Source: an uncultured Candidatus Saccharibacteria bacterium (GTDB taxonomy: Bacteria > Patescibacteriota > UBA1384 > XYA2-FULL-43-10 > 1-14-0-10-43-13). Taken from it: a stretch of DNA of 64,000 bases. Made by a program: the position numbers and the translations under genes. Every line of letters starts with the position of its first letter. Positions within the stretch are counted from its first letter, which is position 1. The notes under the pieces were generated by a model. That model did not search any database. It was not told where the DNA came from and saw only the letters and a list, made by a program, of their open reading frames with translations. Location of the stretch: assembly GCA_964543385.1 (NCBI GenBank), contig CAZIYE010000002.1, positions 64,034-128,033 on the forward strand, in the 5' to 3' direction. Shown here in pieces: positions 5,871-57,200 of this stretch.

Positions 5871-5887
5871 CTTTGTTCCTTTATTAT

Positions 5888-18278: not shown

Positions 18279-18848
18279 ATGGATGATCAGATTAAAATTT
18301 TAGGAATCGCTGGTAGCATAAGAGAGGGATCTTACAATAGGATGTTGCTAAAATTTGCCAAGAGTTCGGCTAATCAGTCACTGGCAAGTATGAATATCTA
18401 TGATATCGAGAAATTGCCGTTATATAACCAAGACATGGAGCAAAATTTGCCGAACAGTGTTAAAGAATTCAAGCAGGCGGTAGCGGAGTCAGATGCGATT
18501 TTGATGGTCACCCCAGAGTATAACTATTCAATCTCTGGTGTCTTAAAAAATGCAATTGACTGGGCTTCGCGACCATTTGGTGATAATTCTTGGGCAGGGA
18601 AACCAGTTGCGATAATGGGGGCTTCTACTTCTGGCTTTGGAACGCTTCGAGCCCAGCTTCATTTGAGGCAAATATTCCTATATCTTAACATGCATCCAGT
18701 CGCTGAGCCTGAAATTTATGTTTCTTATGCGGATCAAAGATTCAATAAGAGCGGCGAATTAATAGATGATGATATAAGAATGAAAGTCAAAAATTTACTC
18801 GATGCCTTGATTATAAAGACAAGGTCAATAAAGGGTCTGTCATGGTAG
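18279..18848 (+). CDS. NAD(P)H-dependent FMN reductase
   Basis: 189 aa: KILGIAGSIREGSYNRML...VTPEYNYSISGVLKNAIDW. Flavodoxin-like FMN reductase signature. Confidence 0.8.
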   Translation: MDDQIKILGIAGSIREGSYNRMLLKFAKSSANQSLASMNIYDIEKLPLYNQDMEQNLPNSVKEFKQAVAESDAILMVTPEYNYSISGVLKNAIDWASRPFGDNSWAGKPVAIMGASTSGFGTLRAQLHLRQIFLYLNMHPVAEPEIYVSYADQRFNKSGELIDDDIRMKVKNLLDALIIKTRSIKGLSW

Positions 18849-18913
18849 AGTATTCGGGGATATAATCAATCTTTCTAATTGCATTTTAAGCTCAAAAAGC
18901 ATATGCTTGAGTT

Positions 18914-19831
18914 ATGAATTGGTTTACTATTTCGCTTTTGCCACCAATGATTTGGGCTCTCTCAAATCATTTTGATAAATATCTGCTCAACAAATTCTTC
19001 AAGAATATAGGTGGCGGTCCACTTATTATATTGACATCCCTTACTGCTCTTATAACTCTTCCTTTGATCCTGCTATTTTCTTCAGCTGAGATATCGATGA
19101 ACGCTCCTGCGATATTAGCTCTGATAGGGCTTGGACTGTTAGGAATGGGCGGCGGACTTCTATATATCTATGCTATGAGTAAGGATGATCCAAGTGTCGT
19201 CATCCCGCTTTTTCAGATGATTCCAGTATTCAATTATTTCCTAGGTTTAATTTTTCTGAAAGAAACTCTTTCCACGGTGCAGTTAATAGGATCAGTTCTT
19301 GTTATCGGTGGGGCGATATTTCTGACAACTGAGCAAGAAGGAAGAAAGTTTAAAATTAAAGCAGGTATATTTTGGGTAATGGCTTTGAATTGTATCCTGC
19401 ATTCTTTCTTTGACCTATCTTTTAAATATATTGCAAAATCAGAAAATCTTTGGGGGGCAAATTTCTGGGTTTACTTTGGCATGGCTCTTTTTGGAATAGC
19501 CATTTTGATATTCAGCAAGGATTGGCGAAACAAATTTTTTAGTATTTTTAAATACAATAGGACAAAGATAATTTCTCTTGGTTTAATTAGTGAAGGCGGT
19601 AGCATAGTAGCTAATTTGATATTCAATTATGCTTTGCTTCTTATGCCAATTGCACTTGTTTCAGTTGTTAGTAACGGTCTCCAGCCATTTTTTGTTCTCT
19701 TATTCGGTATTGTTCTAACAGTGATTTTTCCGGAGATCTGTCATGAAAAATTGACAACCAGAAACCTTGCGCCAAAAATTGCTTTTATTGCAATCATTTT
19801 TATTGGTACATATCTTTTAAATATTAAATAA
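18914..19831 (+). CDS. EamA/DMT-superfamily transporter
   Basis: 305 aa with about 10 predicted TM helices in two EamA-like halves. Confidence 0.6.
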   Translation: MNWFTISLLPPMIWALSNHFDKYLLNKFFKNIGGGPLIILTSLTALITLPLILLFSSAEISMNAPAILALIGLGLLGMGGGLLYIYAMSKDDPSVVIPLFQMIPVFNYFLGLIFLKETLSTVQLIGSVLVIGGAIFLTTEQEGRKFKIKAGIFWVMALNCILHSFFDLSFKYIAKSENLWGANFWVYFGMALFGIAILIFSKDWRNKFFSIFKYNRTKIISLGLISEGGSIVANLIFNYALLLMPIALVSVVSNGLQPFFVLLFGIVLTVIFPEICHEKLTTRNLAPKIAFIAIIFIGTYLLNIK

Positions 19832-19840
19832 GGGAAAAAT

Positions 19841-20590
19841 ATGAAAGTTACAATCTTAGGAAGTGGATCATTTATCTCAAGTCTTGACCATTTCGGACCA
19901 AGTTATCTCATCGAGCATAATAATAGAAAGATATTGGTTGATGCAGGGCAAGGAACGTCAATTCAGCTTTTAAAATTAGGGATCAAATTAGAGGATATCG
20001 ATTACATCTTCATTACGCATTTTCACGGTGATCATAATGCTGATCTACTTGCCTTGTTGCTTTGGCCAAAAATTGCGCAAAGGCAGGGTATCGAGATTAG
20101 CAAAACAATAAAAGTTTTTGGTCAACCAGGTATTAAGCAATTTGTTGATGATGTTTTTTCAGTCTTTTGTCATACTCCTGGCGGTTTCTACGAAGTCACT
20201 GAATTGGAAAATTTTATTCAGATTGAGGGAATTAAAGTTACCGCAATTCCAGTTGTCCATACCGATATTCCTGCTGTTGCATATCGGTTTGAATTAAAGG
20301 ACAAAGTTCTTGTTTTTTCCGGTGATTGTACTCAATGTGATGGAATCAAGAAAGCAAGCAAGGCAGCGGACCTTTTCATAGTTGATTCATCAAATCCAAA
20401 AGAAGTCGAAAACGAATTTCATCTAAATACTATGCAGATAGGAAGGTTATGCGAGGAAAATGGTATTAAAAAAGTTGTCCTATCTCACCTGACTCATTCC
20501 GTGTTCACTAGAGATCTCGTTTCGGAGGTAAAGGAAAATTATTCAGGTGAAGTAATCCTCGCTAAGGATTTAATGAGTTTCGAGGTTTAA
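19841..20590 (+). CDS. MBL-fold metallo-hydrolase
   Basis: 249 aa with the HxHxDH motif (FITHFHGDHNADL). Confidence 0.7.
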   Translation: MKVTILGSGSFISSLDHFGPSYLIEHNNRKILVDAGQGTSIQLLKLGIKLEDIDYIFITHFHGDHNADLLALLLWPKIAQRQGIEISKTIKVFGQPGIKQFVDDVFSVFCHTPGGFYEVTELENFIQIEGIKVTAIPVVHTDIPAVAYRFELKDKVLVFSGDCTQCDGIKKASKAADLFIVDSSNPKEVENEFHLNTMQIGRLCEENGIKKVVLSHLTHSVFTRDLVSEVKENYSGEVILAKDLMSFEV

Positions 20591-20594
20591 AATA

Positions 20595-21743
20595 ATGAAT
20601 GACATATATAATAATGAAATCCGACAAGATAAATTACCAGTAGTAATAATTACTGGATATCCTGGTGCGGGCAAGACCACTTTGGGGAAGAGATTGTCAG
20701 AGAGATTCTGCATACCATTCATCAGCAAGGATGAGATAAAAGAAATAATGTTTGATAGTCTTGGCTGGGATAATAGGGAGTGGTCAATAAAGTTAGGCTC
20801 TGCCAGCTACGATCTAATGTTTTATTTTGCTAAAAAAGTTATTGAATCGAATAAACCTTTTATTCTAGAAACATTTTTCAGCAAAATAAGCGAAAAAGAA
20901 ATTACCAATTTAGAGAGAGAGTTTAATATTTATCCTATACAAATTATTTGCTCTACCAGCCCAGATGTAATTTTAAATAGAGTAAAGGATAGAGTACAAA
21001 ATGGCGAAAGACATCCCGGCCATGTTGATCATACTAGGTATGATGAACTGGCTGATAAAGTAAAAGAAGAATACCGACCACTTGATATAGGTGGCTCCAT
21101 GATGACTATAGATACTTCGGATTTTTGTAGGATAAAATATGATGAGATTTATAATTTTGTAACAAACAATCTGTACGGCAAGCCCAATATGAGAGATGAC
21201 TTGCTAGAAAAATCAATTGGTTTTACTGATCGATCATTTGGCAAGAAAAAACAGCACTTTGTTAAGACCCTTCATTGGTTGCTTCAACTAAAGCCCAATG
21301 CTGATATGGCTTTCCAGGTAGCTGCCTATACACATGATGTTGAGAGAGCGTTTAAAAAAGCTAATGGAAGAAAACGTTTAATTTATAAAACCAAGGATGA
21401 TCTTATAAGACACGAGAAAGATAGCGGATCAATAATGTATGATTTTCTGATAAAAGAAGGAGCAACTAAATCATTTGCTTCTAGGGTCAACGAGCTAATT
21501 TCCTCGCACGAAGAGGGTGGTAGCGCTGATCAAAGTCTTCTCAGGGATTGTGATTCTATCAGTTATCTAGAAATTAATGCTCCTCGTAATTTGGAATGGC
21601 TTGGCGAGGTGCCAGAAAGTGAGATGAGGGAGAAGTTTGACTGGATGTACAAAAGAATCGGATCAGCTAGAGCTAAGAAAATTGCTAAACCTTTTTATAA
21701 TAAAGCAGTAGCCATGTTGGAAGAAAAAATAAAAAATAAGTAG
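20595..21743 (+). CDS. P-loop kinase (AAA_33-like) fused to HD-type phosphohydrolase-like domain
   Basis: Walker A ITGYPGAGKTTLGKRL at the N-terminus. HD-like motif AAYTHDVERAF in the C-terminal half. Confidence 0.5.
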   Translation: MNDIYNNEIRQDKLPVVIITGYPGAGKTTLGKRLSERFCIPFISKDEIKEIMFDSLGWDNREWSIKLGSASYDLMFYFAKKVIESNKPFILETFFSKISEKEITNLEREFNIYPIQIICSTSPDVILNRVKDRVQNGERHPGHVDHTRYDELADKVKEEYRPLDIGGSMMTIDTSDFCRIKYDEIYNFVTNNLYGKPNMRDDLLEKSIGFTDRSFGKKKQHFVKTLHWLLQLKPNADMAFQVAAYTHDVERAFKKANGRKRLIYKTKDDLIRHEKDSGSIMYDFLIKEGATKSFASRVNELISSHEEGGSADQSLLRDCDSISYLEINAPRNLEWLGEVPESEMREKFDWMYKRIGSARAKKIAKPFYNKAVAMLEEKIKNK

Positions 21744-21744
21744 G

Positions 21745-22392
21745 ATGATTATGAACAAGGTTGGATTATTTGTGTTAGGGCTAATAACTCTTGCGTTTGG
21801 TATTGGTGCAACATTATATTCACGCTTACCAGATCAAATGGCTTCTCATTGGAATGCTCAGGGAATTGCAGATGGCACAATGTCTAAACCATTTGCCATT
21901 TTTCTGATGCCGCTGATTATGGTTTTTCTATTCATATTTTTATATTTTTTACCAAAATTTGATCCAATGAAGGGAAATATCAAAAAATTTTATAAGCAAT
22001 ATTCTGGTTTTATTGTTGTAATGACTTTATTCATGTTTGTTCTATATCTACAAACATTGCTTTGGAATCTTGGCACAAGAATAAATCCAATTCTCTTGAT
22101 GTCAGTTGCTTTTGCTTTTTTGATATATTACCTAGGGATTTTAATTGGCAGCACTGAACAAAATTGGACTATAGGTATACGCACCCCTTGGACATTAAGT
22201 AATAAAATAGTTTGGGACAAAACTCATAAGTTAGGTGCAAAACTATATAGAATCATTGCTTTTGTTACTCTGCTGGGGCTAATATTCCCAAACATAGCTT
22301 TCTTATTTTTGATAGTGCCCTTAATGACAGTGAGCTTATTTCTTGTCCTTTATTCGTATCTAGAGTTTAAGAAAGAAATAAATAATTATTAA
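21745..22392 (+). CDS. SdpI/YhfL-family membrane protein (DUF1648-containing)
   Basis: 215 aa, polytopic membrane protein. Motif RLPDQMASHWNAQGIADG matches the DUF1648/SdpI family. Confidence 0.5.
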   Translation: MIMNKVGLFVLGLITLAFGIGATLYSRLPDQMASHWNAQGIADGTMSKPFAIFLMPLIMVFLFIFLYFLPKFDPMKGNIKKFYKQYSGFIVVMTLFMFVLYLQTLLWNLGTRINPILLMSVAFAFLIYYLGILIGSTEQNWTIGIRTPWTLSNKIVWDKTHKLGAKLYRIIAFVTLLGLIFPNIAFLFLIVPLMTVSLFLVLYSYLEFKKEINNY

Positions 22393-22467
22393 TTATTAAT
22401 TATTAATATTGCTCTTTTTGTGTCCTGAGCGGATAATAAAATTAAATTTAATTATGGAGGAAATAGT

Positions 22468-22944
22468 ATGATTAAAATTGTTTATGCAGTTCTGTTGGGA
22501 GTGATTCTTGCTTTTTTTATTGGGTTGGGAATAGAGGCATTTTATCCGACAGAAAAGTATCCCGAAGCACCAACGGAGGTTCAATATGGCAAGGTTGATG
22601 GGGGAAATCTCTCTGCGGATGAAATAAAAGCTCAGCGAGATTTCGATACAAAGGTCAAAGAATTTCAGGATCGGAACAAGGACCATGCTAAAAACGTCTC
22701 ACTCGTTGCTATCATCGGTAGCATCATTTATATGATAATAAGCCTTGCCGTTCTAAATAAAAAGGATGTCTTCGCAGATGGTTTCCTTATCGGTAGCCTG
22801 TTGACCTTGATTTACGGCATAATGCGAGGATTTGAGAGTGACGATAGCAAGTTCCGTTTTATTATTGTTTCGGTTGGATTGGCGGCTGCGCTTATCCTCG
22901 GTTACTTTAAATTCCTGCGCCAAAAAGAAGAGCCAAAGAACTAG
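22468..22944 (+). CDS. hypothetical membrane protein
   Basis: 158 aa with 3-4 TM helices. RBS GGAGG lies upstream. Confidence 0.4.
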   Translation: MIKIVYAVLLGVILAFFIGLGIEAFYPTEKYPEAPTEVQYGKVDGGNLSADEIKAQRDFDTKVKEFQDRNKDHAKNVSLVAIIGSIIYMIISLAVLNKKDVFADGFLIGSLLTLIYGIMRGFESDDSKFRFIIVSVGLAAALILGYFKFLRQKEEPKN

Positions 22945-23016
22945 CAAAAAGAAACAATTGAAGCTATAAAGCTACAAACGGGCGCCTGTTAAGGCGTCCG
23001 TTTGGGTATGTCTCAT

Positions 23017-23790
23017 TTATCTCTCTATTTCCTGTTTACGGAAGAGAAAAATAGCACCCAAAACCAAGATCAATATTAGGCCCACTGAAGTAAGGGCTGA
23101 TGGAAGGAAGTCAACGATCTTGCCTTCTAGTATCAGGGCCTTATAATTTGACATTACATAAGTAGGTGAATAGTCGGAAATTTGTTTAATAAGTCCAAAT
23201 ACAGTGGTAAATAAAATAGATACAAGTAAGGCCATGCCTGCCGCAGTTATCTGATTTTTTGATACAGTACTAAAAAAGATAGTGACTGCTAAAATCAGGG
23301 TTAAAAATATCAGAAGGAAAAATGAGAGCCAGATAAAATTGACAAGACTAAAGCTGCCAAAGAGATTTAGCGTATAAAGATAAAATACTATCGCAGATGC
23401 AATAAAAACCAGCTTGATATACAGCGCGCTGGCAAAGAACTTTGATAACAAGAAGCTGACTCGAGAAATTGGTTTGGTCAGTACCAGTTCGAGGGTTTTC
23501 TTATTCTTCTCTTCAGCAACAGCTCCGGAAAACATTAATAGAATAACAATCATCCCAAATTGTGCCAAATTTTTTACCAATTGATCGATGGAATCTTTCC
23601 ACGTGGGGTCAGGAAAATTGATTGTAAGACCCGGAGTTGCGGGCATAGACTTAAGAATTGTTGGGATCAGCTTTGCTAAGATCGGAGAAGAGATAGCTAT
23701 AAAGGCAAAAACGATCACTAAAATCAGAAACTTCTTAGATCGGTAAATCTCTAATATTTCCTTTTTCATCATTGTGTAAAATGAGTTCAC
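23017..23790 (-). CDS. ABC-2 family transporter permease
   Basis: 257 aa with 6 TM helices. Overlaps the upstream ATPase gene by 4 nt. Confidence 0.6.
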   Translation of the reverse strand: MNSFYTMMKKEILEIYRSKKFLILVIVFAFIAISSPILAKLIPTILKSMPATPGLTINFPDPTWKDSIDQLVKNLAQFGMIVILLMFSGAVAEEKNKKTLELVLTKPISRVSFLLSKFFASALYIKLVFIASAIVFYLYTLNLFGSFSLVNFIWLSFFLLIFLTLILAVTIFFSTVSKNQITAAGMALLVSILFTTVFGLIKQISDYSPTYVMSNYKALILEGKIVDFLPSALTSVGLILILVLGAIFLFRKQEIER

Positions 23791-24713
23791 TTTGCCTCCT
23801 TGATCAGATCGATAAATAAATCTTCTACTTCCGGCAGACTAAGTCCATAAGAAAGAACTCCAATCCCAAATTGTGCAAGAAACTTCAGAGCCAGATTTGA
23901 TTTAACAGTATCATCGTCCCTTAGCCAGACTTTTAAGTGATTGCCATTTTTTTCTATCTTGGTAGCCCATTCCTGTTTTTTGAGGTCTGGTAATACCGAC
24001 TCAGGATCGGAGTCGAATTCTACTTCTAAAATGTTGGTGGCATATTTCTTCTTCAGGTCTGCAAGGGAAGACACTGTAATAAGTTTACCCTTATTGATGA
24101 TAGCAACATCGTCGCAGATTCGATCAACATCAGAAAGGATATGTGTTGAAAGCAATATTGTCATTGTTTTTTTGAGGTTTTCAATAACAGCCAACACCTC
24201 GCGTCGTCCTATTGGGTCAAGTGCAGACACGGGCTCATCCATTATTAGGACTTTAGGTTCATTTACCAAGGCTTGAGCAATACCGAGCCTTTGTTTCATG
24301 CCATTTGAATATGCGCTGATCTTTTTGTCTTTTGCTTCGGAGAGATCGACTAGTTTAAGTAGTTTTTTGATAGTGCTTTCTTTTTCCGTAGTTTTAATCC
24401 CAAAAGTATTAGCTACGAATTCCAGATATTCTTTGCCGGTCATCCAATTGTAAAAAGCCGGTTGCTCTGGAAGATAGCCAAAAAGCTTATTATTTGAAGA
24501 ATTACCAAATATTATTTCTTCACTTGCAATCGTTATGGATCCGCTGGTGGGTTTGGATAAGCCGACCAGTATCCGTATGGTCGTTGTCTTGCCGGCACCG
24601 TTTGGTCCCAAAAAACCCATAACTCTATTCTCGGCAACATCAAATGATAATCCAGAAACTGCAGTGAAATTATTGAATTTCTTGGTTAGACTTTGGATCT
24701 TTATTGCAGACAT
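23787..24713 (-). CDS. ABC transporter ATP-binding protein
   Basis: Walker A GPNGAGKTTT, signature YSNGMKQRL, Walker B LIMDEP. Start placed at MSAIKIQ (24713) rather than the track's 24791. Confidence 0.85.
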   Translation of the reverse strand: MSAIKIQSLTKKFNNFTAVSGLSFDVAENRVMGFLGPNGAGKTTTIRILVGLSKPTSGSITIASEEIIFGNSSNNKLFGYLPEQPAFYNWMTGKEYLEFVANTFGIKTTEKESTIKKLLKLVDLSEAKDKKISAYSNGMKQRLGIAQALVNEPKVLIMDEPVSALDPIGRREVLAVIENLKKTMTILLSTHILSDVDRICDDVAIINKGKLITVSSLADLKKKYATNILEVEFDSDPESVLPDLKKQEWATKIEKNGNHLKVWLRDDDTVKSNLALKFLAQFGIGVLSYGLSLPEVEDLFIDLIKEAK

Positions 24714-24715
24714 TT

Positions 24716-24913
24716 CTAATCCTCGCTTCGTCCGGCTAGAAGATAGGCGACAGGCCCGATGATCTCGCCAATTATTATGATAACAATCCAAATGGCGGGA
24801 GAAAGATTCTTGGTCTTCTTCTTTTTTAGCACATCAACTATTGCGTAAATTTGTAAACCAATTTGAAGCACGATAATTGGCCAAACAAGTTTTAAGATGT
24901 CAATGTGATCCAT
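24716..24913 (-). CDS. PLD nuclease N-terminal (PLDc_N) domain small membrane protein
   Basis: 65 aa with two TM helices and a C-terminal IIGPVAYLLAGR motif typical of PLDc_N. Confidence 0.55.
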   Translation of the reverse strand: MDHIDILKLVWPIIVLQIGLQIYAIVDVLKKKKTKNLSPAIWIVIIIIGEIIGPVAYLLAGRSED

Positions 24914-25019
24914 GCTCCTCCAAATATTATTTATAGCAATATGATATCAAAACTGATAATTTAATGAAACAACAATCATAAAATATGCTATCATAAGTTG
25001 CATAAGAAAGGCTATTACT

Positions 25020-25352
25020 ATGATCACATTTGAATATTTTGAAAAAGTAGATATCCGAGTGGGGAAAGTTATCGAAATAGATGACTTTCCGGAGGCAAAA
25101 ATTCCTAGTTATAAAATGAAGATTGATTTTGGTTCGGAAATAGGGGTGAAAAAATCATGCGGAAGATATCCTCAAAATTACAAGAAAGAAGAGATATTGG
25201 GTCGACAAGTTTGTTGTGTTGTAAATTTCCCACCAAGACAGATTGGCCCTGCTATTTCAGAAGTATTGACGCTAGGTTTTACCGATGAAAAGGGCAATGC
25301 AATCCTAATTATTCCTGAGAAGGAAGTTCCTCTTGGCGGAAAACTTCATTAA
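25020..25352 (+). CDS. tRNA-binding protein (CsaA/Trbp111-like OB-fold)
   Basis: 110 aa: DIRVGKVIEIDDFPEAKIPSYKMKIDFG..., the EMAP/CsaA tRNA-binding signature. Confidence 0.75.
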   Translation: MITFEYFEKVDIRVGKVIEIDDFPEAKIPSYKMKIDFGSEIGVKKSCGRYPQNYKKEEILGRQVCCVVNFPPRQIGPAISEVLTLGFTDEKGNAILIIPEKEVPLGGKLH

Positions 25353-25367
25353 ATAATAAATATAAGT

Positions 25368-25973
25368 ATGGCTAATGAAATAAAAGATCTTGCAATTTCG
25401 AGAGCTCAAGAAATAATAAGCCAGATGAAAGATGTGGCCCACAGTAAGTCCCATATTGAGCAAGTGCTGATTTATTCAGAACAAATTGCCAAACATTATC
25501 CCGAGGCAAACAAAGATATTCTTGATTTAGCTGCATGGTGGCACGATACGGGGAGACTCAATACAGATGAAGGTCATGCAGCTAAAAGCGCCGAGATAGC
25601 AGCCAAAGAGCTGAATAAAATTGGTATTGATTCTGACACAATTAGCAAAATTTGTTGTGCTATACGAGAGCATAGTAATAGCGAAGGAATCACCCCGACT
25701 ACACTAGAGGGAAAAATCTTAAAAGATGCTGATAAGCTAGATTTTCTTACTCCAAAACGCTGGCAGATGTGCATTGATGAAAAGCTTGATTGGGCCGTCT
25801 TGGTCGGAATCAAAAAGATACCGATTATAAGAAACCATATTTTAAATTTGATAGAATCTAAAGAGATTTTCGACTCTCTCTTTTTAGAGTTAAAAGATTT
25901 TGTCAGAGACGAAAATTCAGCATTTTTTGAAAAGTATAAGCAACAAGTAATTGATTTAAAAATTAGGGAGTAA
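25368..25973 (+). CDS. HD-domain phosphohydrolase
   Basis: H...HD motif (AAWWHDTGR) and a downstream D (KDADKLD). Confidence 0.7.
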   Translation: MANEIKDLAISRAQEIISQMKDVAHSKSHIEQVLIYSEQIAKHYPEANKDILDLAAWWHDTGRLNTDEGHAAKSAEIAAKELNKIGIDSDTISKICCAIREHSNSEGITPTTLEGKILKDADKLDFLTPKRWQMCIDEKLDWAVLVGIKKIPIIRNHILNLIESKEIFDSLFLELKDFVRDENSAFFEKYKQQVIDLKIRE

Positions 25974-25975
25974 AA

Positions 25976-26758
25976 GTGAAATACAAGGATTTTGCAGTCG
26001 AGTTGGCGAAAGAAGCCGGAAAAATAATCAAATCAAATTTTACAATTGGTATGGAAAAGGGCTGGAAAGGTATCGATGGCCCTGTAACAAAAACGGATAA
26101 AGGGGTAAATAGTCTTGTGATAGAATCAGTCAAGAAGTATTTTCCTGATCACAATATCAGAGGAGAAGAGGAGAGCTATCATGAACAGAAATCTGAATTT
26201 CTCTGGGTTTGCGATCCAATTGATGGAACAATTCCTTTTTCGCATGGGTTGCCAGTTTTTATGTTCTCATTGGCATTAGTTAAAAATGGTGAGCCAATAA
26301 TGGGTGTTTTATATGACCCAATTTTAGACAAACTTTTCTACGCCGAGAAAGGCCATGGTGCTACATTAGATGGCAAGGCTATCAAAGTATCAGATCGAGA
26401 AACACTAAAGGACAGTGCCGTTGATATAGAAAGTTGGTCAACTGCCAGATATTACGCTCCTGCTCTTGAGAGGGAAGTATATTCTACCGATGCTCTTCTT
26501 GTCCACTATGCTTGCATTACTTACCCTTGCGCTTTAGTGGCAGCAGGAGAGTTCGTGGGCGCAATATTTGCCGGCTATACCGAGTGGGACATTGCAGCGG
26601 TCAAGGTGATTGTAGAGGAGGCTGGCGGCAAGGTAACAGATCTATTTGGTCAGGAGCAACGTTACGACCAAGATATTAAAGGGGCTGTTATATCAAATGG
26701 CAAAACACACGATATATTACTTAAAATAGTAAAAGAGGCAATAGCAAAAAATGAATGA
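25976..26758 (+). CDS. inositol monophosphatase family protein
   Basis: WVCDPIDGT motif plus further IMPase metal-binding motifs. Confidence 0.85.
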   Translation: MKYKDFAVELAKEAGKIIKSNFTIGMEKGWKGIDGPVTKTDKGVNSLVIESVKKYFPDHNIRGEEESYHEQKSEFLWVCDPIDGTIPFSHGLPVFMFSLALVKNGEPIMGVLYDPILDKLFYAEKGHGATLDGKAIKVSDRETLKDSAVDIESWSTARYYAPALEREVYSTDALLVHYACITYPCALVAAGEFVGAIFAGYTEWDIAAVKVIVEEAGGKVTDLFGQEQRYDQDIKGAVISNGKTHDILLKIVKEAIAKNE

Positions 26759-27383
26759 TTTTAAAAATATATTAAATCTTTTGCACTTAGCTGAGAAGCT
26801 AAAATACGAACTTCGTCATAGTTGGCTTTCTGACGGACGGCAGGAGAGTGTTGCTGAACATAGCTGGCGAATGGCGCTAATGGTTATTCTATTTAAGTCA
26901 TATCTAAATGAGGGGTTCAATGTAGAAAAAGCCCTGAAAATTGCCATTGTTCATGACCTAGTTGAGGCTGAAGTTAAAGATACTCCAGCATTTGATACTA
27001 GTAAAGAAGATGAAAAAAAAGAGCTTGAAGAAAAGGCGGCCAAGAATTTTATAAAGGTAGCAGGTGATGATATCGGACAGGAACTTTATAATCTTTGGCG
27101 GGAGTACGAGGACACCGAAACTTACGAGGCGAGAGTAGTAAAAGCGCTAGGTAAATTAGAAGTTCGCCTGCAGCATAATGAAGCAGATCTAAAAACCTGG
27201 GAGGACGTTGAATTTCCAAGAGCACTTTTCGCCGCCGATAAATTTTGTGATTTTGATGAAGTTTTGCGTGGTTTTAATGATTTAGTAAAAGACGAATCAA
27301 GGTCCAAAATAGTTACTGCTGCAATTAATATCAAAAAAATAGAAGAAGAGGCAGAAGAGCTAAGGCCAAAGCAAGTTAGATAA
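26751..27383 (+). CDS. HD-domain hydrolase (YfbR-like 5'-deoxynucleotidase family)
   Basis: HSWRMALMV...IVHDLVEAEVKDTP is a YfbR-type HD signature. Confidence 0.7.
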   Translation: MNDFKNILNLLHLAEKLKYELRHSWLSDGRQESVAEHSWRMALMVILFKSYLNEGFNVEKALKIAIVHDLVEAEVKDTPAFDTSKEDEKKELEEKAAKNFIKVAGDDIGQELYNLWREYEDTETYEARVVKALGKLEVRLQHNEADLKTWEDVEFPRALFAADKFCDFDEVLRGFNDLVKDESRSKIVTAAINIKKIEEEAEELRPKQVR

Positions 27384-27390
27384 GGAAAAA

Positions 27391-27933
27391 ATGAAAATTA
27401 CATTCATTACTGGAAATAAATCAAAAGTAGAGCAACTTAGACGGTTTCTAAAAGTATCAGTTGACCATGTCAAGCTAGATCTCGAAGAGATACAATCCCT
27501 CAACCTAGAAGAGATAGTAGAAAAGAAAGCAAAGCAAGCGTATGAGATTATCAAAAGCCCAGTTTTAGTGGAGGATGTCTCGCTCGTTTATACTGCCCTC
27601 AACGGCCTTCCTGGGCCATTAATTCGTTGGTTTCTCGAGCAATTGGGTAATGCTGGTCTCTGTCGTCTTATAAATCATTATAATAAAGATAGGTCAGCTA
27701 CTGCTAAAGTCGCCTACAGTTATTTTGACGGCAATAATTTACAAATATTCACAGGTGAGATCACAGGCAAAATCGCGGCTCACCCGAGAGGAGAGAATGA
27801 TTTTGGCTGGAGTCCAGTTTTTATTCCTGATGGTAGCGATAAAACATTGGCCGAAATGACGCACGATGAATATGAAAATTTCTCTATGAGAAAGATTGCT
27901 CTACAAAAATTGACAAAATATCTATCAGAATAA
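27391..27933 (+). CDS. non-canonical purine NTP pyrophosphatase (RdgB/HAM1 ITPase)
   Basis: MKITFITGNKSK...WSPVFIP are Ham1 family motifs. Confidence 0.85.
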   Translation: MKITFITGNKSKVEQLRRFLKVSVDHVKLDLEEIQSLNLEEIVEKKAKQAYEIIKSPVLVEDVSLVYTALNGLPGPLIRWFLEQLGNAGLCRLINHYNKDRSATAKVAYSYFDGNNLQIFTGEITGKIAAHPRGENDFGWSPVFIPDGSDKTLAEMTHDEYENFSMRKIALQKLTKYLSE

Positions 27934-27935
27934 AA

Positions 27936-27968
27936 AAACAAACGGCGCATATGCCGTTTGTTTTTTTA
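27936..27968. terminator. bidirectional rho-independent terminator between convergent genes
   Basis: aaacaaacggcgcatatgccgtttgttttttt is a perfect hairpin flanked by an A-run and a T-run. Confidence 0.7.
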
Positions 27969-27988
27969 TGATGCAAGATAAATATTGC

Positions 27989-28753
27989 TTATGGTCTCAA
28001 GGTTCCTGCAAAAACTTGCCAGGCTAATAGCGATTTTGCCACTAGGCTTAAGATAATATAGGCGCGCTCACCATATAGATAATCACTCCATTTGCCGAGC
28101 TTCTTATACTGCAATACTTGGTTTATGGCAAAGCTATTGAAGAATAAAAATATAGAGAAGTAAATCCAATAGACAAAATTTGGTGCCTTATCTGCACTAC
28201 CTGGATTCCACAAATATATACCAATCGCAATCCATGGACCGATACCAGCGATACAGCCGAATATAAATGATGTCCAATTTGCCTTTGTCGTTGATTGATT
28301 ATGAAGCTCCATCATCCAACCAAATAGAATCATGGTCGCATTTAAAATAATAATTGCAATTAACGCTGAGATATCATAAATGCCTACAAGCATTGCAATA
28401 ACTAGAATCATTATTGACGAGCTAAAGGAATATTCAATCCATCGGGCATAATTAGCTCCTTTGGCCAAATTTTTATTGTACCAATTATTTATTCCTGGTA
28501 ATGAAATTAACAAATGAGCTAAAGAAGAAAGAAATAGAAAAGATGCCACGACTGGTCCAATTTGTAGCTCAAATAAATTTCTAGTGCTTGGCAGTAACTG
28601 TTGTGAGATTACATCGTATTTCAGAAAAGAACCAGTGACGGGTAATTTAAATCCACTTGATACTAGCAACATGGCAATGCCCTGTCCGAAGTGCAAAATG
28701 GCCATTATGATATTAAACCGCCTGAGCTTATAAAATTTTTCTTCTCGATCCAT
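27989..28753 (-). CDS. heliorhodopsin (7-TM retinal protein, inverted topology family)
   Basis: 254 aa with 7 TM helices. Strong matches to heliorhodopsin 48C12 motifs: RWIEYSFSSSIMILVIA (TM3 counterion Glu), NATMILFGW, FGCIAGIGPW, FLFFNSFA, and YGERAYIILSLVAKSLLAWQVFAGTL (Schiff-base Lys in SLVAKS). Strong SD AGGAGG lies upstream. Confidence 0.85.
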   Translation of the reverse strand: MDREEKFYKLRRFNIIMAILHFGQGIAMLLVSSGFKLPVTGSFLKYDVISQQLLPSTRNLFELQIGPVVASFLFLSSLAHLLISLPGINNWYNKNLAKGANYARWIEYSFSSSIMILVIAMLVGIYDISALIAIIILNATMILFGWMMELHNQSTTKANWTSFIFGCIAGIGPWIAIGIYLWNPGSADKAPNFVYWIYFSIFLFFNSFAINQVLQYKKLGKWSDYLYGERAYIILSLVAKSLLAWQVFAGTLRP

Positions 28754-28833
28754 TGTTCCTCCTAATTGTTAGATGTATCTATTATATACTAATTTCAATT
28801 GTTGCCAATTATTATTGACGTAACATCTATTTT

Positions 28834-29244
28834 ATGTTAAAAAATAGATTGCGTTTCGACGCAAAGGGGGACTCCATGAATTCAGATAAAAAAGATCAAA
28901 GTGTCGAAAAGACACCTCTCGAGATTATATTTGATAGTCTCTGTGAGAAGATTTCTGGCGAAGGGTTAGCTCGTTTAGAGCCTAAAACCAAAAAAGCCAG
29001 ACATGAGATCGACCTTTTATTTTCGCTATTTGCTCTATATAGAGCACGATTTAGTGGAATAACGGTTGATAATCGGGATGTAATCGTCAATATTATAGAA
29101 GACCATATTGACGAGAATTTCAGACCGATATCTGCTGAAGATATCGGCCATGGTGGTAAGAAATATTCATTTGAACGAGTCGGCAATAGCCGCTCGCTAC
29201 ATGTATGTTTCATTGGGAACGAAATCAACCTCGTCCTCACATAA
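28834..29244 (+). CDS. hypothetical protein
   Basis: 136-aa ORF with no recognisable domain. An alternative start at MNSDKK (28876) is possible. Confidence 0.35.
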   Translation: MLKNRLRFDAKGDSMNSDKKDQSVEKTPLEIIFDSLCEKISGEGLARLEPKTKKARHEIDLLFSLFALYRARFSGITVDNRDVIVNIIEDHIDENFRPISAEDIGHGGKKYSFERVGNSRSLHVCFIGNEINLVLT

Positions 29245-29319: not shown

Positions 29320-29796
29320 TTAGGTCCGATTATCTATTAGTTCAGCTAGCTCTTTTTTTACTAGTGCAATATGCTCTTTAGTTTCGCGTTTTAGATCCTC
29401 CATGACTCGGCGTACGCTTGCAGCATCTGATGATATAAATTCGAAATAGTTTTTTTCGAAAAACGATTCTTCAAATTGCAGGGATTTTTGTAGTGCCTCA
29501 GCCAATGTCATATATTCTTCAGAAACAATTTCCTCTTCAATTTCCTCGTTTATTAATCGAAGTGATTCTTCTGGTAGAAGATTAAGTCTAATAGAAAAAA
29601 CGTCATTACTTTTCATTAGAGCTTCAAGCCACTGAGCATGACGGTTTTCCTCGCTTGAGATTTTTAGCCAAAAATCATGATTTTGAAACATCTGAGAGTA
29701 TCGGCGATATAATCTCATAAAACTGTGTTCGTTGCGAATCATTAACTCCATTATTCTTTTGCTTTCAGTAGAATTTTTTGGAGATTTATTTTTCAT
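29320..29796 (-). CDS. ferritin-like domain protein (putative)
   Basis: 158 aa, predicted helical, with an ExxH motif (EENRHAQWLE). Confidence 0.4.
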   Translation of the reverse strand: MKNKSPKNSTESKRIMELMIRNEHSFMRLYRRYSQMFQNHDFWLKISSEENRHAQWLEALMKSNDVFSIRLNLLPEESLRLINEEIEEEIVSEEYMTLAEALQKSLQFEESFFEKNYFEFISSDAASVRRVMEDLKRETKEHIALVKKELAELIDNRT

Positions 29797-30109: not shown

Positions 30110-30490
30110 TTACGGGGCGTGAATCGCCCTCATTTCCTCTTCGGTGAGGGGGATCCCTTCGCAGGAACCGGTGTAATAGTAGCACCAGTACCAACAGAGG
30201 GGGACTACTTTCGGCCCCAGCACTTGTAGTATCGGGACTTGAGCGGTTGGGGCCGGCATGGTTTCGACGGTCTCCAGAACCGGAGGAGTGTAGAATGTTT
30301 GGAACGAGGATTCCTCGATTCTATAATTCTCACTCTCCATTTGTGCGAAAAACACGCCGAAGGTTCCTTCGCAGGTCATTGTCTGCGATGTAGCAGTTTC
30401 GACGGCTTCTGCCGTCTCTGCTGCCGTGCAGGCAATAGCTGCAAGAACAAACATCGCTGCCATAAAGGCGAGCTGAATCAACTTCCGCAT
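30110..30490 (-). CDS. small secreted Cys-rich protein (126 aa), GC-rich
   Basis: Strong SD (AAGGAGGAACCCCT-ATG). Signal peptide MRKLIQLAFMAAMFVLAAIACTAAETAEA. Cys-rich C-terminus (VPLCWYWCYYYTGSCEG). A compound hairpin terminator follows at about 30038-30090. Confidence 0.5.
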   Translation of the reverse strand: MRKLIQLAFMAAMFVLAAIACTAAETAEAVETATSQTMTCEGTFGVFFAQMESENYRIEESSFQTFYTPPVLETVETMPAPTAQVPILQVLGPKVVPLCWYWCYYYTGSCEGIPLTEEEMRAIHAP

Positions 30491-30985: not shown

Positions 30986-31086
30986 CACTTTTAGCATAAT
31001 AATTATAAATAAAAATGCTATTTTTGTCAACAGATTTGAGCTAGATGCATGATTTGGATATAATGATAGAAATAAATGGAGAAAAA

Positions 31087-31464
31087 ATGAAAAAAAGTAC
31101 AGCGGACATATTAGCGGCTTTATCAGTATTATTAATTATTATTGCCTTCGGTGTATGGTATTTCAGATTTGAGGAAGGTTGGAGTGCTATCGACTCTTTC
31201 TACTTTACTGTTATGACTATGACGTCGGTAGGGTATGGCGATTTTGTACCCACGCACAATGCATCAAAAATTGTTACTGCTTTTTATGCTATGGTTAGTA
31301 TTCCTCTAGTTATTTTCTCTCTGGGGGTAATCGCCAAAAGCTACTTTGAAAAAAGAATTGGCAATATCGAACAGAGAATGTCTGAGATATTAACGAGGGA
31401 AAAGCTATTAGAAGAAGATGTTGAAGAAGCAATCGATGATGGCAAGAAGAGCGAAAAAAAATAA
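31087..31464 (+). CDS. two-TM potassium channel (KcsA-like)
   Basis: Selectivity filter TSVGYGD lies between two TM helices. Start set at MKKST (31087) with GGAG 7 nt upstream; the track starts at 31045. Confidence 0.75.
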   Translation: MKKSTADILAALSVLLIIIAFGVWYFRFEEGWSAIDSFYFTVMTMTSVGYGDFVPTHNASKIVTAFYAMVSIPLVIFSLGVIAKSYFEKRIGNIEQRMSEILTREKLLEEDVEEAIDDGKKSEKK

Positions 31465-31520
31465 ATATCATATAATTTAATATTAACTTCGTCTAAATAA
31501 TATTTAATAAAAAGGATTTT

Positions 31521-32078
31521 ATGGAAACGCCAAAAAACATTGTGCGAGCCATCGCTGGAGAAAGTATGGCGAGAAATAAATATACCTTCTTTGCCTCACA
31601 GGCCAAAAAAGAGGGCTATGAACAAATATCAGCAATTTTTCTAGAAACGGCTGATAACGAGAAGGAACATGCTAAAAGGTTGATGAAATTATTAGATGGC
31701 CCAACAGAATCATCTTTGGACAGCTTCGATTTTCCTGTAGTTAAAGGTACTGTAGAAAATCTGGCCGCCGCTGCTGCAGGTGAGAAATATGAAAATACCG
31801 TAATGTATCCTGAGTTTGCCAAAGTTGCGAAAGAAGAAGGATACGACGAAGCCGCAAAGATATTTACTGAAATCGGCGAAGTCGAAGAACATCATGAGGG
31901 TCGTTATTTGAAGCTAAAAGAAAATATAGAAAAGGGGATCGTATTCAAAAGAGACACAGAGGTTTCATGGCGTTGTCGAAATTGTGGCTATGTCCATAAA
32001 GGAACGGACGCTCCGCATATTTGTCCGGCCTGCGCTCACCCACAAGCTCATTACGAGCTTCTCTCTGAAAATTACTAA
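31521..32078 (+). CDS. rubrerythrin
   Basis: Ferritin-like diiron domain followed by a C-terminal rubredoxin-like domain (CRNCGY...CPAC). Confidence 0.9.
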   Translation: METPKNIVRAIAGESMARNKYTFFASQAKKEGYEQISAIFLETADNEKEHAKRLMKLLDGPTESSLDSFDFPVVKGTVENLAAAAAGEKYENTVMYPEFAKVAKEEGYDEAAKIFTEIGEVEEHHEGRYLKLKENIEKGIVFKRDTEVSWRCRNCGYVHKGTDAPHICPACAHPQAHYELLSENY

Positions 32079-32086
32079 ACAATTAA

Positions 32087-32116
32087 TAAAGACCTGCCGA
32101 TGGCAGGTCTTTATTA
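32087..32116. terminator. bidirectional terminator between rubrerythrin and the hydrogenase-like gene
   Basis: aaagacctgcc gatg ggcaggtcttt is a perfect hairpin. Confidence 0.65.
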
Positions 32117-32138
32117 ATATATGGCTAGATCAAATTTT

Positions 32139-32987
32139 CTAGTAACTTGCATCAAAATTAATGTCTTTTTCCAGATCAACATTCCCATTATTCTTTTTTT
32201 CTTTTTCTGCCAACTGACGGTAATCCATTATCCGTCTCTCTTTCTCTTCTCTAGGTAGTTTAGTATTGGCCAAGGCAGGCCCGCCGATACATCCTCCTGG
32301 ACAATTCAAGATATCAAAAAAACGATACTGAGTTGTGCCTGATTTTATTTCATCAAAATGCTTGAATAGATTTTTTGGTTCATCTGTTATGCATATCTCC
32401 GAATCTTTAAAAAAATTCTTCAATAATGCGGTTTGGGCTAAGCCTCCAGAAATTGGATATATTTTTGTGTCTTCCTCATAGAAAGAGTCAAATTGGTAAT
32501 CTTTACCAGATTCCAATATTTTTTTTTCTTCAAGAACTTGTGCCAATTCCTTGAATGTTATAACAAGATTTATTATGTCTTTGTAGAGTGGTGCTTCTAG
32601 TGCTTGTTTTGCCAAACAGGGTGAAACGAACACAATATTGTGGCTAGAATAATATTTTCTAAGTATCTTTGCCATTGCTGCCATTGGAGAAACATGAGGA
32701 ACAAGATATTGGACTAGTTCTGGGTATCTGGACTTAACCAATGATACGCAGGTAGGGCAGGGAGATGTTATATAATATTTTTGATCCGGATGGCTTTTTA
32801 CATATTCCACATAAGAATAATTTACCATTCTGGCGCCAAAGGTCAGTTCGCATACCTTGTCAAATCCCAGCTTTTTAAGAGCTCCAATTATTTGAGGATA
32901 CTCAAAATCAATCGGGAAACTTGGGGCAAGCATACAGATGGAGGGTTTCTTTAGCAGTTCCAATAGTTCTAATTGTCTGGGATTCAT
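32139..32987 (-). CDS. compact [FeFe]-hydrogenase-like protein (H-cluster domain only, variant L1 motif)
   Basis: 282 aa. MLAPSFPIDFEYPQIIGALKKLGFDKVCELTFGA aligns to the start of the H-domain. L1-like ITSPCPTC stands where TSCCP is expected. L2-like SPCLAKQALE stands where MPCxxKxxE is expected. L3-like LNCPGGCIGGP stands where MACxGGCxxGGG is expected. No N-terminal ferredoxin-like domain. Confidence 0.55.
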   Translation of the reverse strand: MNPRQLELLELLKKPSICMLAPSFPIDFEYPQIIGALKKLGFDKVCELTFGARMVNYSYVEYVKSHPDQKYYITSPCPTCVSLVKSRYPELVQYLVPHVSPMAAMAKILRKYYSSHNIVFVSPCLAKQALEAPLYKDIINLVITFKELAQVLEEKKILESGKDYQFDSFYEEDTKIYPISGGLAQTALLKNFFKDSEICITDEPKNLFKHFDEIKSGTTQYRFFDILNCPGGCIGGPALANTKLPREEKERRIMDYRQLAEKEKKNNGNVDLEKDINFDASY

Positions 32988-35511: not shown

Positions 35512-35979
35512 TTAACTAGTTCCTATTTTGGACAAAAGCCAGTTTCTTGAATCTTCTAGAATTTGTCTAGTTTCCTTGTAGGTGATCTTTTCAAGTGCAT
35601 TCTCATATGTTAGCCATTTGGCATCAGTAATTTCTTTCCCATCAATTTTGATCTCAAGGTTCTCGCAAAAACAAGGGAAAAATTTGACAGTTTTATCTAC
35701 CATTGTGCCGTGGTCATTCCAGCTATATTTTTCTATGAAATAAGTATCGGTAATTATCTTGAGAGGTCTTATCCCGGTCTCTTCGTAAAGTTCTCTTTCT
35801 GCTGTTTCAATTTCTGTTTCGCCAACCTCGGGATGTCCCTTTGGAAAGCTCCAAAATTGTCCATATTGTTCTATCAACAAAAAATAGATAGTACTTGGAT
35901 CTTTATATTTTTGAAATATTGGCACAACGCCGTAAGAGAAATCCTTCATATTAGTGGAGGACCTCGCCTTCGCCGTCAT
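35512..35979 (-). CDS. Nudix hydrolase
   Basis: Nudix box GHPEVGETEIETAERELYEETGI. Overlaps the upstream histidine kinase gene by 29 nt on the same strand. Confidence 0.8.
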   Translation of the reverse strand: MTAKARSSTNMKDFSYGVVPIFQKYKDPSTIYFLLIEQYGQFWSFPKGHPEVGETEIETAERELYEETGIRPLKIITDTYFIEKYSWNDHGTMVDKTVKFFPCFCENLEIKIDGKEITDAKWLTYENALEKITYKETRQILEDSRNWLLSKIGTS

Positions 35980-37600
35980 GGGCGTCGTAAGGCTTTTTAC
36001 TTAGAATTGGCATCGAGAAAAAGAAGGTTGTGCCTTTGTCAGCGCCATCGGAGTGAAACCAAATTTTACCTTTTTGCAATTCAACAAATTTCTTAGATAT
36101 ATACATGCCAAGTCCGGTGCCCTTGACTTCGTCTTTAAGCACATCTACCTGAGTGAATTTCTCAAAGACTGCCTGCTGGCGATCTTTTGGTATTCCCTTG
36201 CCATTATCCTCAACCGATATAACGATTTTTTGATCATCGTTCATAACTCTGACGACTATTTTGCCGCCATCGGGAGTGTATTTTATCGAGTTTCCGATGA
36301 CATTAATAAGTACTTCAGTAATACGAGTAACGTCAAACCAAGTAGGTGGCATTTTGTGCTTAGGCTCTTCGAAAGTCAGTGTATGTTTGGCTTCTCGTGC
36401 CTTCGACATCACTTCAGTGATTGCTTGACTTATAACATCCTCGACAGGCTTTTGTTCCCAGATGATATGGATTCGTCCAGACTCAATCCTGGAGACATTT
36501 AGGAGGTCTTTTACCATATTTGCAAGCCTTGTAGCGGATTGAAATACGCTATCGAGGTAAGTGCGAGCTTTATCAGGGATCTTGCCACCAAGACCCTCGA
36601 TCAAAATCATAGAAAGGTAACCCTTGATCGCAGCGATAGGGGTATTGAGTTCATGCGATGCCATGGACAAAAAGTCATCTTTCAATTTATCCACTTCCTT
36701 TAGATGATCATTGGCAGTCTCAAGATCTTTGGCAAGTTTTTGAATTTGTTCTCGACGTTTTATTTCCTGCTTGACAGACTTAATAAGTAAATATCCACCA
36801 ATGGAAACCAAACAAAAGATTGTTGCATTGATCAAAAATTGGTTAAACGTTTTCGATAATATAGTTTGAGTTCCTATGGCAATAATTACGATTATAGCAC
36901 TGGCTTCTGTTAAAATTACTTTTATATCAAAAAGTCCCTTTGCTACCATTGCATAGGTTGTGAATCCAACAAATGGTAGAACGAAATATGTGCCGAGGTA
37001 TACAAAATTATCGAGCTTAAATACCAAAACGAGTATGAGATTAAAGAATATCATTAAAAAGAACATTGATGAAACTCCAGTAAAGATAAATTTTATTTGT
37101 TCTCTTATAAAACCTTCGGCCTTTAGAAATTTTTTTATTAATAAATAAAATCCTGTTCCTATAGAACCAACTGCAGTAACTAGAAACAGTAACATGCCAG
37201 GGCCAACTTTTGGGCTTCTAGTATTGTTCACGGCATCGATTTCAACTCCAGGGAAGAATATAGGGGACATCACAACCGCAATAGTTGCAACAACTACGAT
37301 GGAATAAATAAAATAAAATTTACGTTTAAATGGCAGTTTTCCCTCTGGGAAAGCTTGAGCAAATAGAAAGAAAAAAACGGACTGAAGTACAGCGAAAACC
37401 ATTACTAATCGCATGAGAATTAAAATAGTATTATAATCTTGGGCAAGCACAGAAAAATAATTTGAAACAGACCATAAAACTAGTGAAAGGGTCAAGTAAA
37501 AAAATAAAGTTCTTAGGGTTTTGTTTTTGGACTTTGTTAATGCAATTATGCCCAGGACTAGATTTAGGGCTGCACCCAGAATAAGTATCAGCGCGTTCAT
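35951..37600 (-). CDS. membrane sensor histidine kinase (polytopic N-terminal sensor + HisKA + HATPase_c)
   Basis: 549 aa with about 8 N-terminal TM helices, a coiled-coil linker, H-box SHELNTPIAAIKGY and G-boxes DNGKGIP and GTGLGMYISKKF. Confidence 0.8.
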   Translation of the reverse strand: MNALILILGAALNLVLGIIALTKSKNKTLRTLFFYLTLSLVLWSVSNYFSVLAQDYNTILILMRLVMVFAVLQSVFFFLFAQAFPEGKLPFKRKFYFIYSIVVVATIAVVMSPIFFPGVEIDAVNNTRSPKVGPGMLLFLVTAVGSIGTGFYLLIKKFLKAEGFIREQIKFIFTGVSSMFFLMIFFNLILVLVFKLDNFVYLGTYFVLPFVGFTTYAMVAKGLFDIKVILTEASAIIVIIAIGTQTILSKTFNQFLINATIFCLVSIGGYLLIKSVKQEIKRREQIQKLAKDLETANDHLKEVDKLKDDFLSMASHELNTPIAAIKGYLSMILIEGLGGKIPDKARTYLDSVFQSATRLANMVKDLLNVSRIESGRIHIIWEQKPVEDVISQAITEVMSKAREAKHTLTFEEPKHKMPPTWFDVTRITEVLINVIGNSIKYTPDGGKIVVRVMNDDQKIVISVEDNGKGIPKDRQQAVFEKFTQVDVLKDEVKGTGLGMYISKKFVELQKGKIWFHSDGADKGTTFFFSMPILSKKPYDAHDGEGEVLH

Positions 37601-37627
37601 TTCCCTCCTATGATTAGCAATCAGATA

Positions 37628-46142: not shown

Positions 46143-46197
46143 AAATATCTAGACAATTTCGAAATCTTAATTTATTTCCGCAAATATCTCAGAGAAA

Positions 46198-55067: not shown

Positions 55068-57200
<2,133 letters not shown>

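Follow-up and report, generated by a model that had tools for sequence, protein, structure and literature searches.

The heliorhodopsins (HeRs) include two structurally solved prokaryotic members, 48C12 (6SU3, 6UH3), which is the founding member, belongs to subfamily 1 and comes from an actinobacterial fosmid, and TaHeR (6IS6, 7U55) from the Thermoplasmatales archaeon SG8-52-1. Bulzu et al. described HeRs as restricted to monoderms, with Patescibacteria listed among the HeR-bearing lineages, and proposed a sensory role with an oxidative-stress model and two-component and photo-oxidative links (PMC8612252). In a survey of 1326 genomes of the Candidate Phyla Radiation (CPR), Chiriac et al. counted 115 rhodopsins, distributed over 86 genomes; 98 of these rhodopsins are HeRs, and SLVAK is among the commonest motifs of the CPR HeRs (PMC9166423). 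Regulation of partner proteins is mediated by basic residues in the intracellular loops 1 and 3 (ICL1 and ICL3), and in OcHeR single Arg-to-Gln changes in ICL1 abolish both the binding of OmrDE and light activation, the arginines of ICL3 tuning the affinity (PMC11109279). Cho et al. found that of 448 helR genes 275 have a transcription unit to themselves, so that a stand-alone gene is the norm (PMC11109279). Here we describe a HeR gene in a stretch of 64,000 nucleotides of contig CAZIYE010000002.1 (the whole of this 64-kb stretch is called the window), where an ATG-to-stop open reading frame (ORF) at 27989..28753 on the minus strand constitutes a coding sequence for 254 residues. That the protein is a heliorhodopsin is as good as certain, and it probably acts as a functional light-activated regulator that uses exogenous retinal in a Berkelbacteria-like CPR host. 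Since CPR HeRs, the SLVAK motif, the restriction to monoderms, stand-alone helR genes and the scavenging of retinal have all been published, the finding is correct but ordinary, and this HeR is an uncharacterised addition to a well-known family, bordering on what is already known.

A preliminary description of the window had named the gene product a heliorhodopsin from its letters, and this identity is borne out by family profiles, by individual residues and by the predicted fold. The product matches the Pfam profile PF18761 (Heliorhodopsin) over positions 1-242 of 242, with E=1.5e-103 and 345.8 bits against a cut-off of 26.7, and the NCBIfam equivalog NF038020, 'heliorhodopsin HeR', over positions 1-244 of 244, with 349.5 bits against a cut-off of 100. 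The type-1 rhodopsin profile PF01036 (Bac_rhodopsin) gives no Pfam match in the protein even at E<=1 and the remaining Pfam matches are sub-threshold noise, so that a type-1 rhodopsin or a member of some other family with seven transmembrane (TM) helices was rejected. The best matches in the PDB are TaHeR (6IS6) at 9e-76 and 48C12 (6SU3) at 6e-65, and more than 7,900 database clusters match the protein at E<=1e-20. All four motifs quoted in the preliminary description are present in the 254-residue ORF, namely RWIEYSFSSSIMILVIA at residues 104-120, FGCIAGIGPW at 165-174, FLFFNSFA at 202-209 and ILSLVAKSLLAWQVFAGTL at 234-252, and the Schiff-base lysine is K240 in the protein's own count. An identical protein sequence is recorded in NCBI, JGI and Logan, the only recorded name being 'hypothetical protein' in JGI; orthologues with 69-75% identity already carry the NCBI name 'heliorhodopsin HeR'.

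The residues of 48C12 that were named as structurally or functionally important by Kovalev et al. (PMC7049168) were mapped onto this HeR, and 44 of the 46 are identical, the exceptions being R91 and L202, which are W and I here, respectively. The TM3 counterion E107 together with R104, W105 and Y108 (RWxEY) is identical to 48C12, and in TM7 the segment S236-L-V-A-K240 (SxxxK), where Ser replaces the Asp of type-1 rhodopsins, aligns with S237 and K241. The stabilising serines S76, S111 and S236 and the His pair H21/H80 (H23/H80 in 48C12) are kept, as are N14, Y92, N101, R104, Y108, E149 and E229 of the polar cavity, and identity extends to Q212, Q215, Y225, the helix-E proline P173 and the surface cluster Q24/S241/W245. 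The named positions of the chromophore site and of the lateral fenestration are invariant across 50 aligned homologues with 69-91% identity; these include K240 and E107, the TM7 lysine and TM3 glutamate to which the preliminary description had tied its identification.

An AlphaFold2 model made on the 50-homologue alignment has a predicted local distance difference test score (pLDDT) of 89.8 and a predicted template modelling score (pTM) of 0.84. It contains seven TM helices, at residues 2-31, 65-84, 102-122, 128-154, 160-181, 192-216 and 225-252, and two strands, 36-47 and 52-64, that make up the long beta-hairpin typical of the HeR AB loop. The model superposes on TaHeR (6is6) with a template modelling score of 0.92 and a root mean square deviation of 1.9 A, and on 48C12 (6su3) with a score of 0.88; type-1 rhodopsin structures reach only about 0.6, at 10-16% identity. 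With the N-terminus placed inside, 13 lysines and arginines fall on cytoplasmic and 5 on extracellular segments between the predicted helices, which is consistent with the inverted HeR topology with a cytoplasmic N-terminus. A light-driven or light-gated ion transporter like the viral V2HeR3, a member of this superfamily, is another reading, and some viral HeRs have been reported to transport protons (references in PMC11109279 and PMC12873467), but such a function is very improbable here: the transporting HeRs form a divergent, largely viral subfamily 2 that is without the fenestration site and has other pocket residues (PMC7049168; 10.1101/2025.11.27.691015), whereas the protein in the window has the subfamily-1-type set of Q212, I142, N138, P173 and a hydrophobic residue at 201, and its identity to 48C12 and TaHeR, neither of which transports ions, is 48-53%.

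The fenestration of 48C12, also proposed as a carotenoid site, consists of F162, C166, G169, F206, N207 and A210, and the criteria given for it at the beta-ionone ring are, in 48C12 numbering, an aromatic pair at 162/206, small residues at 166/210 and G169 (preprint 10.1101/2025.11.27.691015). At the sequence level all six residues are kept in this HeR, as F163, C167, G170, F205, N206 and A209. A 2025 preprint suggests for HeRs generally a two-antenna light harvester, where the fenestration chiefly binds exogenous xanthophylls and energy is captured instead of a signal being given. The six proposed carotenoid-site residues (10.1101/2025.11.27.691015) would suit such a function, and with an envelope of the monoderm type external pigments would have access to the site, but the evidence of the preprint is structural and docking-based, and no energy-conserving output, for example ion transport, is known for this class of HeR. 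Moreover, the extracellular half is hydrophobic as in 48C12 (the change of L202 to I adds no new charges) and no energy-transducing gene adjoins the HeR gene, and we regard energy capture by this protein as improbable. As every residue of the fenestration is conserved, retinal uptake of the TaHeR type is the natural inference.

The source of the retinal was approached by annotating the ORFs of the window from precomputed Pfam tables for contigs with identical proteins and by running hmmscan on the 3' end and on the stretch from 30 to 47 kb, and 14 ORFs without Pfam matches were scanned again at permissive thresholds (E<=1 or <=10). The preliminary description was right that no blh or crt gene occurs in the 64 kb: BCD/Blh, RPE65/CCD, SQS_PSY (CrtB), Amino_oxidase (CrtI) and Lycopene_cycl (CrtY) are found in none of the 62 called ORFs of the window, and retinal and carotenoid families were also not found in about 4 kb past its left edge, in L084. 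A Blh hidden among the ORFs without Pfam matches was considered and rejected, as ten of them rescanned at E<=1 gave nothing relevant, and a retinal-producing locus with a rhodopsin, blh and crtEBIY was likewise rejected, no such family being present in the window. Since no pathway is seen in 64 kb and CPR bacteria, to our knowledge, generally have neither a retinal nor a carotenoid pathway, the chromophore is most likely scavenged, and would enter from the surroundings or from a host by way of the TM5/TM6 lateral fenestration. Jaffe et al. found no blh in rhodopsin-bearing Saccharibacteria (PMC9296517), and the host of TaHeR is also without retinal synthesis, its apoprotein binding external retinal within seconds via the opening (PMC9296517, citing Shihoya 2019).

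The signals around the gene are those of a separately expressed unit. Its Shine-Dalgarno sequence, described earlier as strong, is GGAGG at 28758..28762 on the minus strand, seen directly in the sequence 4 nucleotides (nt) 5' of the ATG; the plus strand at 28754-28762, tgttcctcc, reads GGAGGAACA on the minus strand and is followed by the HeR ATG. About 30 nt 5' of the start codon, inside the divergent intergenic region of 80 nt, there is a σ70-like promoter candidate on the minus strand, TTGGCA-16 nt-TATAAT (28781..28808), with 11 of 12 consensus matches in a consensus scan; it is a consensus match only, the top-scoring one of 12 such sites in the region where 7.4 +/- 2.5 are expected. Between the convergent stops of a Ham1-like gene (27933) and the HeR gene (27989), RNA folding and the sequence reveal an intrinsic terminator at 27930..27969, a perfect 17-bp hairpin with A7 and T7 flanks that folds with -22.1 kcal/mol (z=-7.09, none of 200 shuffles being equally stable). 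As the hairpin is flanked by an A-run and a T-run the terminator is bidirectional, in agreement with the preliminary description, and with its own promoter-like site, Shine-Dalgarno sequence and terminator the HeR gene looks monocistronic. Its GC content of 0.363 is in line with that of the window (0.375), and there is therefore no compositional sign of recent import.

Compared with 12 orthologous genes the nonsynonymous divergence (dN) is 0.14-0.28, and as the synonymous divergence (dS) is saturated in 11 of the 12 comparisons only a qualitative statement of purifying selection holds; the single computable pair gives a dN/dS of 0.107. With dN far below the saturated dS, the gene is under purifying selection and is not a relic. 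A non-functional or decaying relic in a genome that is unable to make retinal would agree with the lack of a retinal pathway in the window, but it is extremely unlikely, given an intact, full-length ORF with strong expression signals, the retention of all catalytic residues, this pattern of dN and dS, and orthologues retained in dozens of CPR metagenome-assembled genomes (MAGs).

To find a partner, the four ORFs on each side of HeR were clustered over about 71 related genome loci. No neighbour family is present in more than 7 of these loci, the commonest being found in 5-7, and the immediate neighbours in the window never recur; the three closest orthologue contigs (79-83% identity) have flanks wholly different from those of the window. 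The gene thus has no obvious operon partner, as had been stated, and about 75 related loci show no conserved neighbour. A linked transducer of the SRII-HtrII or ASR-ASRT type and a HeR-partner operon were both rejected, as the gene has its own signals and its flanks are divergent and convergent. Glutamine synthetase, photolyase, MerR, DUF2177 and DegV genes are not adjacent to this HeR, and the nearest ATP-binding cassette (ABC) transporter, of the ABC-2 type (23017-24791), is located about 3.2 kb away on the same strand, past five genes of the opposite strand. Recurrent neighbour clusters in the related loci are a MacB-type ABC transporter (ABC_tran with FtsX/MacB_PCD) and a PAS-HisKA kinase. 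In four Berkelbacteria-type loci (L009, L011, L013, L029) the gene next to HeR on its upstream side, in the same orientation, encodes a desulfoferrodoxin (superoxide reductase), and in three loci (L008, L015, L062) a pyrimidine-dimer DNA glycosylase (Pyr_excise) gene is the next one downstream of HeR. These clusters fit the ideas of two-component signalling and of photo-oxidative or ultraviolet (UV) defence, but are too sparse and lineage-bound to count as evidence, and the adjacency of desulfoferrodoxin and Pyr_excise may reflect the shared ancestry of a few genomes. ABC transporters are weakly recurring near-neighbours of HeR, which deserves mention given the published interaction of OcHeR with an ABC exporter. 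In L086, whose HeR is 83% identical, a Flavodoxin_2 gene and a PLDc_N/ABC_tran/ABC-2 permease trio lie within 4 kb of HeR, as they do at 18279-24950 in the window, without the intervening nucleotide-hydrolase block of the latter, and in L088 an ABC importer pair precedes HeR by 40 nt in the same orientation.

The window has a GC content of 0.34-0.43 and is 88.6% coding, with 62 ORFs of at least 70 residues and TGA used as stop. The nearest genome-borne HeR orthologues, with 66-80% identity, are found in MAGs labelled Patescibacteria, Candidatus Berkelbacteria, Saccharibacteria and Kerfeldbacteria, and a closed Berkelbacteria genome of 915 kb (CP011213) carries a HeR that is 73% identical. GyrB (55086-57200) is 79-84% identical to Patescibacteria MAGs and 76-78% to Berkelbacteria, the contigs of these relatives being 868-972 kb. 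To judge from these similarities the host is a Berkelbacteria-like member of the Patescibacteria (CPR), a group with genomes of about 1 Mb, in line with the AT-rich, small-genome bacterium recognised before, and the agreement between the GyrB and HeR patterns argues for residence of HeR in the lineage over recent transfer. Between the CPR, Chloroflexota and Actinomycetota the HeRs are 60-67% identical. The host had also been called monoderm-like; no outer-membrane markers are present in the 64-kb window, and the HeR literature counts the phylum among the monoderms (PMC8612252).

Several close homologues of GyrB, of 836-1146 residues, contain inteins (PF14890; P0124, P0159, P0170, P0187), and the GyrB of the window (704 residues) is without one. 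Five HeR-bearing MAG contigs (L015, L028, L030, L038, L077) are titled 'uncultured Gammaproteobacteria bacterium' and would represent diderm hosts; the identity between their HeRs and the CPR protein of the window is 61-74%. As L015 and L038 have CPR-specific neighbour families in common with the Patescibacteria MAGs L008, L016 and L017, at least these two are probably taxonomic mislabels and do not break the rule of monoderm hosts. Just upstream of the HeR gene there are a class-A RNase P RNA and a tRNA-Gln, and between them, in a locally GC-richer stretch, is an ORF of 126 residues (30110-30490, minus strand) without a Pfam match. Its N-terminus (…VLAAIAC…) is like a signal peptide or lipobox, and its C-terminal motif, CWYWCYYYTGSC, is odd in being aromatic and rich in Cys; the ORF may encode a small secreted peptide or be spurious.

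A mechanism can be proposed from characterised relatives, namely 48C12, TaHeR, OcHeR and those HeRs whose partner is glutamine synthetase or photolyase; characterised HeRs absorb near 550 nm. K240 should bind all-trans retinal, which light would isomerise, whereupon the network of the protonated Schiff base and E107 would rearrange and a long-lived intermediate would form. As its extracellular half is hydrophobic, the protein should let no ion cross. Via the basic loops ICL1 (K94/K98) and ICL3 (K217/K218/K221/R230) the change in conformation might be relayed to a partner whose gene lies elsewhere in the genome, and the HeR would be a slow-cycling light-dependent regulatory switch, plausibly for the control of photo-oxidative or UV damage.

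Some points weigh against a light-activated regulator that depends on external retinal. The absence of retinal synthesis was seen in 64 kb of a genome of about 1 Mb, from which we infer that it is genome-wide. W91, which is clade-wide in the homologue alignment, replaces a conserved cytoplasmic residue that is Arg in both 48C12 (R91) and TaHeR, so the partner interface may differ, and the substitution might point to another partner. From the neighbourhood no partner can be named, because neighbours differ even among the 79-83% identical orthologues and no family exceeds 7 of the roughly 71 loci. Finally, many HeR-carrying relatives have aphotic-sounding habitats, which sits uneasily with a purely light-sensing role: the names, from which alone the habitats were read, include Rifle groundwater GW2011, NC_groundwater, ADurb anaerobic digester bins, an AnMBR bioreactor, African mine BE2012 and Go_SlDig (record titles L004, L019, L034, L036, L068-L072, L078).

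Such names, pointing to groundwater, anaerobic digesters, membrane bioreactors and deep mines, could speak for a light-independent role, where the protein would be a binding protein for retinal, a carotenoid or a small anion, a sensor or an enzyme in mostly dark habitats, its photochemistry being incidental; at low pH planar anions bind in the cavity of 48C12, and the possibility of an enzymatic role has been raised (PMC7049168). Habitats taken from MAG names only are set here against a Schiff-base lysine, a counterion and a whole photoactive site that are invariant in 50 homologues, which is best explained by selection for the chromophore, and a light-independent role is rather unlikely. In a CPR cell that is auxotrophic for retinal and probably episymbiotic, the HeR could also be active only when a neighbour or host supplies retinal, and perhaps a xanthophyll, via the outward-facing fenestration, and so report a pigment-producing partner together with light, or it could serve as a light-independent ligand sensor in the groundwater and digester relatives; we consider this unlikely. 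If it were true, a genome of about 1 Mb would offer an unusually small search space for the general output partner of HeRs. A canonical HeR among about 900-1000 genes and with no visible chromophore pathway makes a convenient minimal system for the questions of what HeRs signal to and where symbionts get their retinal.

The genes around HeR are of several kinds. Five plus-strand genes at 25020-27933, encoding tRNA_bind, HD, inositol monophosphatase-like, YfbR-like HD 5'-nucleotidase and Ham1/ITPase proteins, converge on HeR, and on its other side there is a divergent ORF of 136 residues (28834-29244) without Pfam or PDB match, and then an ORF of 158 residues (29320-29796). The preliminary description had characterised the neighbours as nucleotide house-cleaning enzymes and a ferritin-like protein; the first holds for the 25020-27933 block, and the second label, given to the 158-residue ORF, has no Pfam support and was rejected, the similarity to designed due-ferri di-iron four-helix bundles being non-significant (E~0.2). 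This ORF is not a paralogue of the other 158-residue ORF in the window. There is a genuine rubrerythrin, with a rubredoxin-like C-terminal domain, at 31521-32078. It follows a two-TM K+-channel-like protein of 139 residues (Ion_trans_2) and is convergent to a protein of 282 residues consisting only of the C-terminal (H-cluster) domain of the [FeFe]-hydrogenase large subunit. These genes, at 31045-32987, make up a set for redox reactions or oxygen defence at a distance of 2.3-4.2 kb from HeR on its upstream side.

Nucleotide-sanitising and phosphohydrolase genes are strikingly dense in the window (25368-27933, 35512-35979 and 45714-47057) and comprise Ham1/ITPase, the YfbR-like HD 5'-nucleotidase, two more HD-domain proteins, two stand-alone NUDIX hydrolases and the NUDIX domain of a kinase; on the plus strand, five of these and related genes lie together in a single block that runs up to the HeR terminator. 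The kinase, a histidine kinase of 725 residues (5487-8065, minus strand), has an unusual N-terminal NUDIX domain followed by GAF, PAS, HisKA and HATPase_c, and a stand-alone response regulator comes directly after it; this fusion may couple the hydrolysis of a nucleotide or second messenger to signalling. A tightly packed, partly overlapping cluster at 35512-40305 on the minus strand encodes, from upstream to downstream, a protein of 527 residues without Pfam match, a ThiF/E1-like protein (372 residues), a HisKA_7TM kinase (549 residues) and a NUDIX hydrolase. An E1-like protein beside a large protein without Pfam match resembles some ubiquitin-like or defence modules. The exact 527-residue product (ORF 38722-40305) has no record in the exact-protein look-up, the called start probably being different.

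Among the known systems, the type-1 rhodopsins, including the SacR proton pumps of Saccharibacteria, have the 7-TM retinal-protein fold in common with this HeR, and SacR also belongs to a CPR host that imports retinal (PMC9296517), but they have DxxxK instead of SxxxK and the opposite membrane orientation, and the HeR has no proton donor/acceptor motif. OcHeR with its OmrDE ABC transporter and the HeRs associated with glutamine synthetase or photolyase have in common with this protein the basic residues of ICL3 and some basic residues of ICL1; these partner-regulating HeRs lie in operons with their partners, whereas the present gene is monocistronic. 48C12 is 48% identical, differs in the sequence of the AB loop and is offset by 2 residues there and in helix A, and its residues E107, Y108, W105, R104, H23/H80, S76, S111, S237, K241, E149, E230, Q213, P172 and W246 are all identical here. 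TaHeR, from an archaeal and not a CPR bacterial host, has an EF loop that is 3 residues shorter and a Y at fenestration position 164 where this HeR has F163 (10.1101/2025.11.27.691015), but is 53% identical over 251 aligned positions and shares the RWxEYS counterion motif, the SLVAKS Schiff-base motif, the C-terminal AWQVFAGTLRP and the conserved fenestration. The annotated CPR HeRs, for example that of Berkelbacteria GW2011_GWE1_39_12 (CP011213), have immediate neighbours that differ in every lineage; they belong to the same phylum, are of equal length and 66-80% identical, and have the SLVAK motif in common with the HeR described here.

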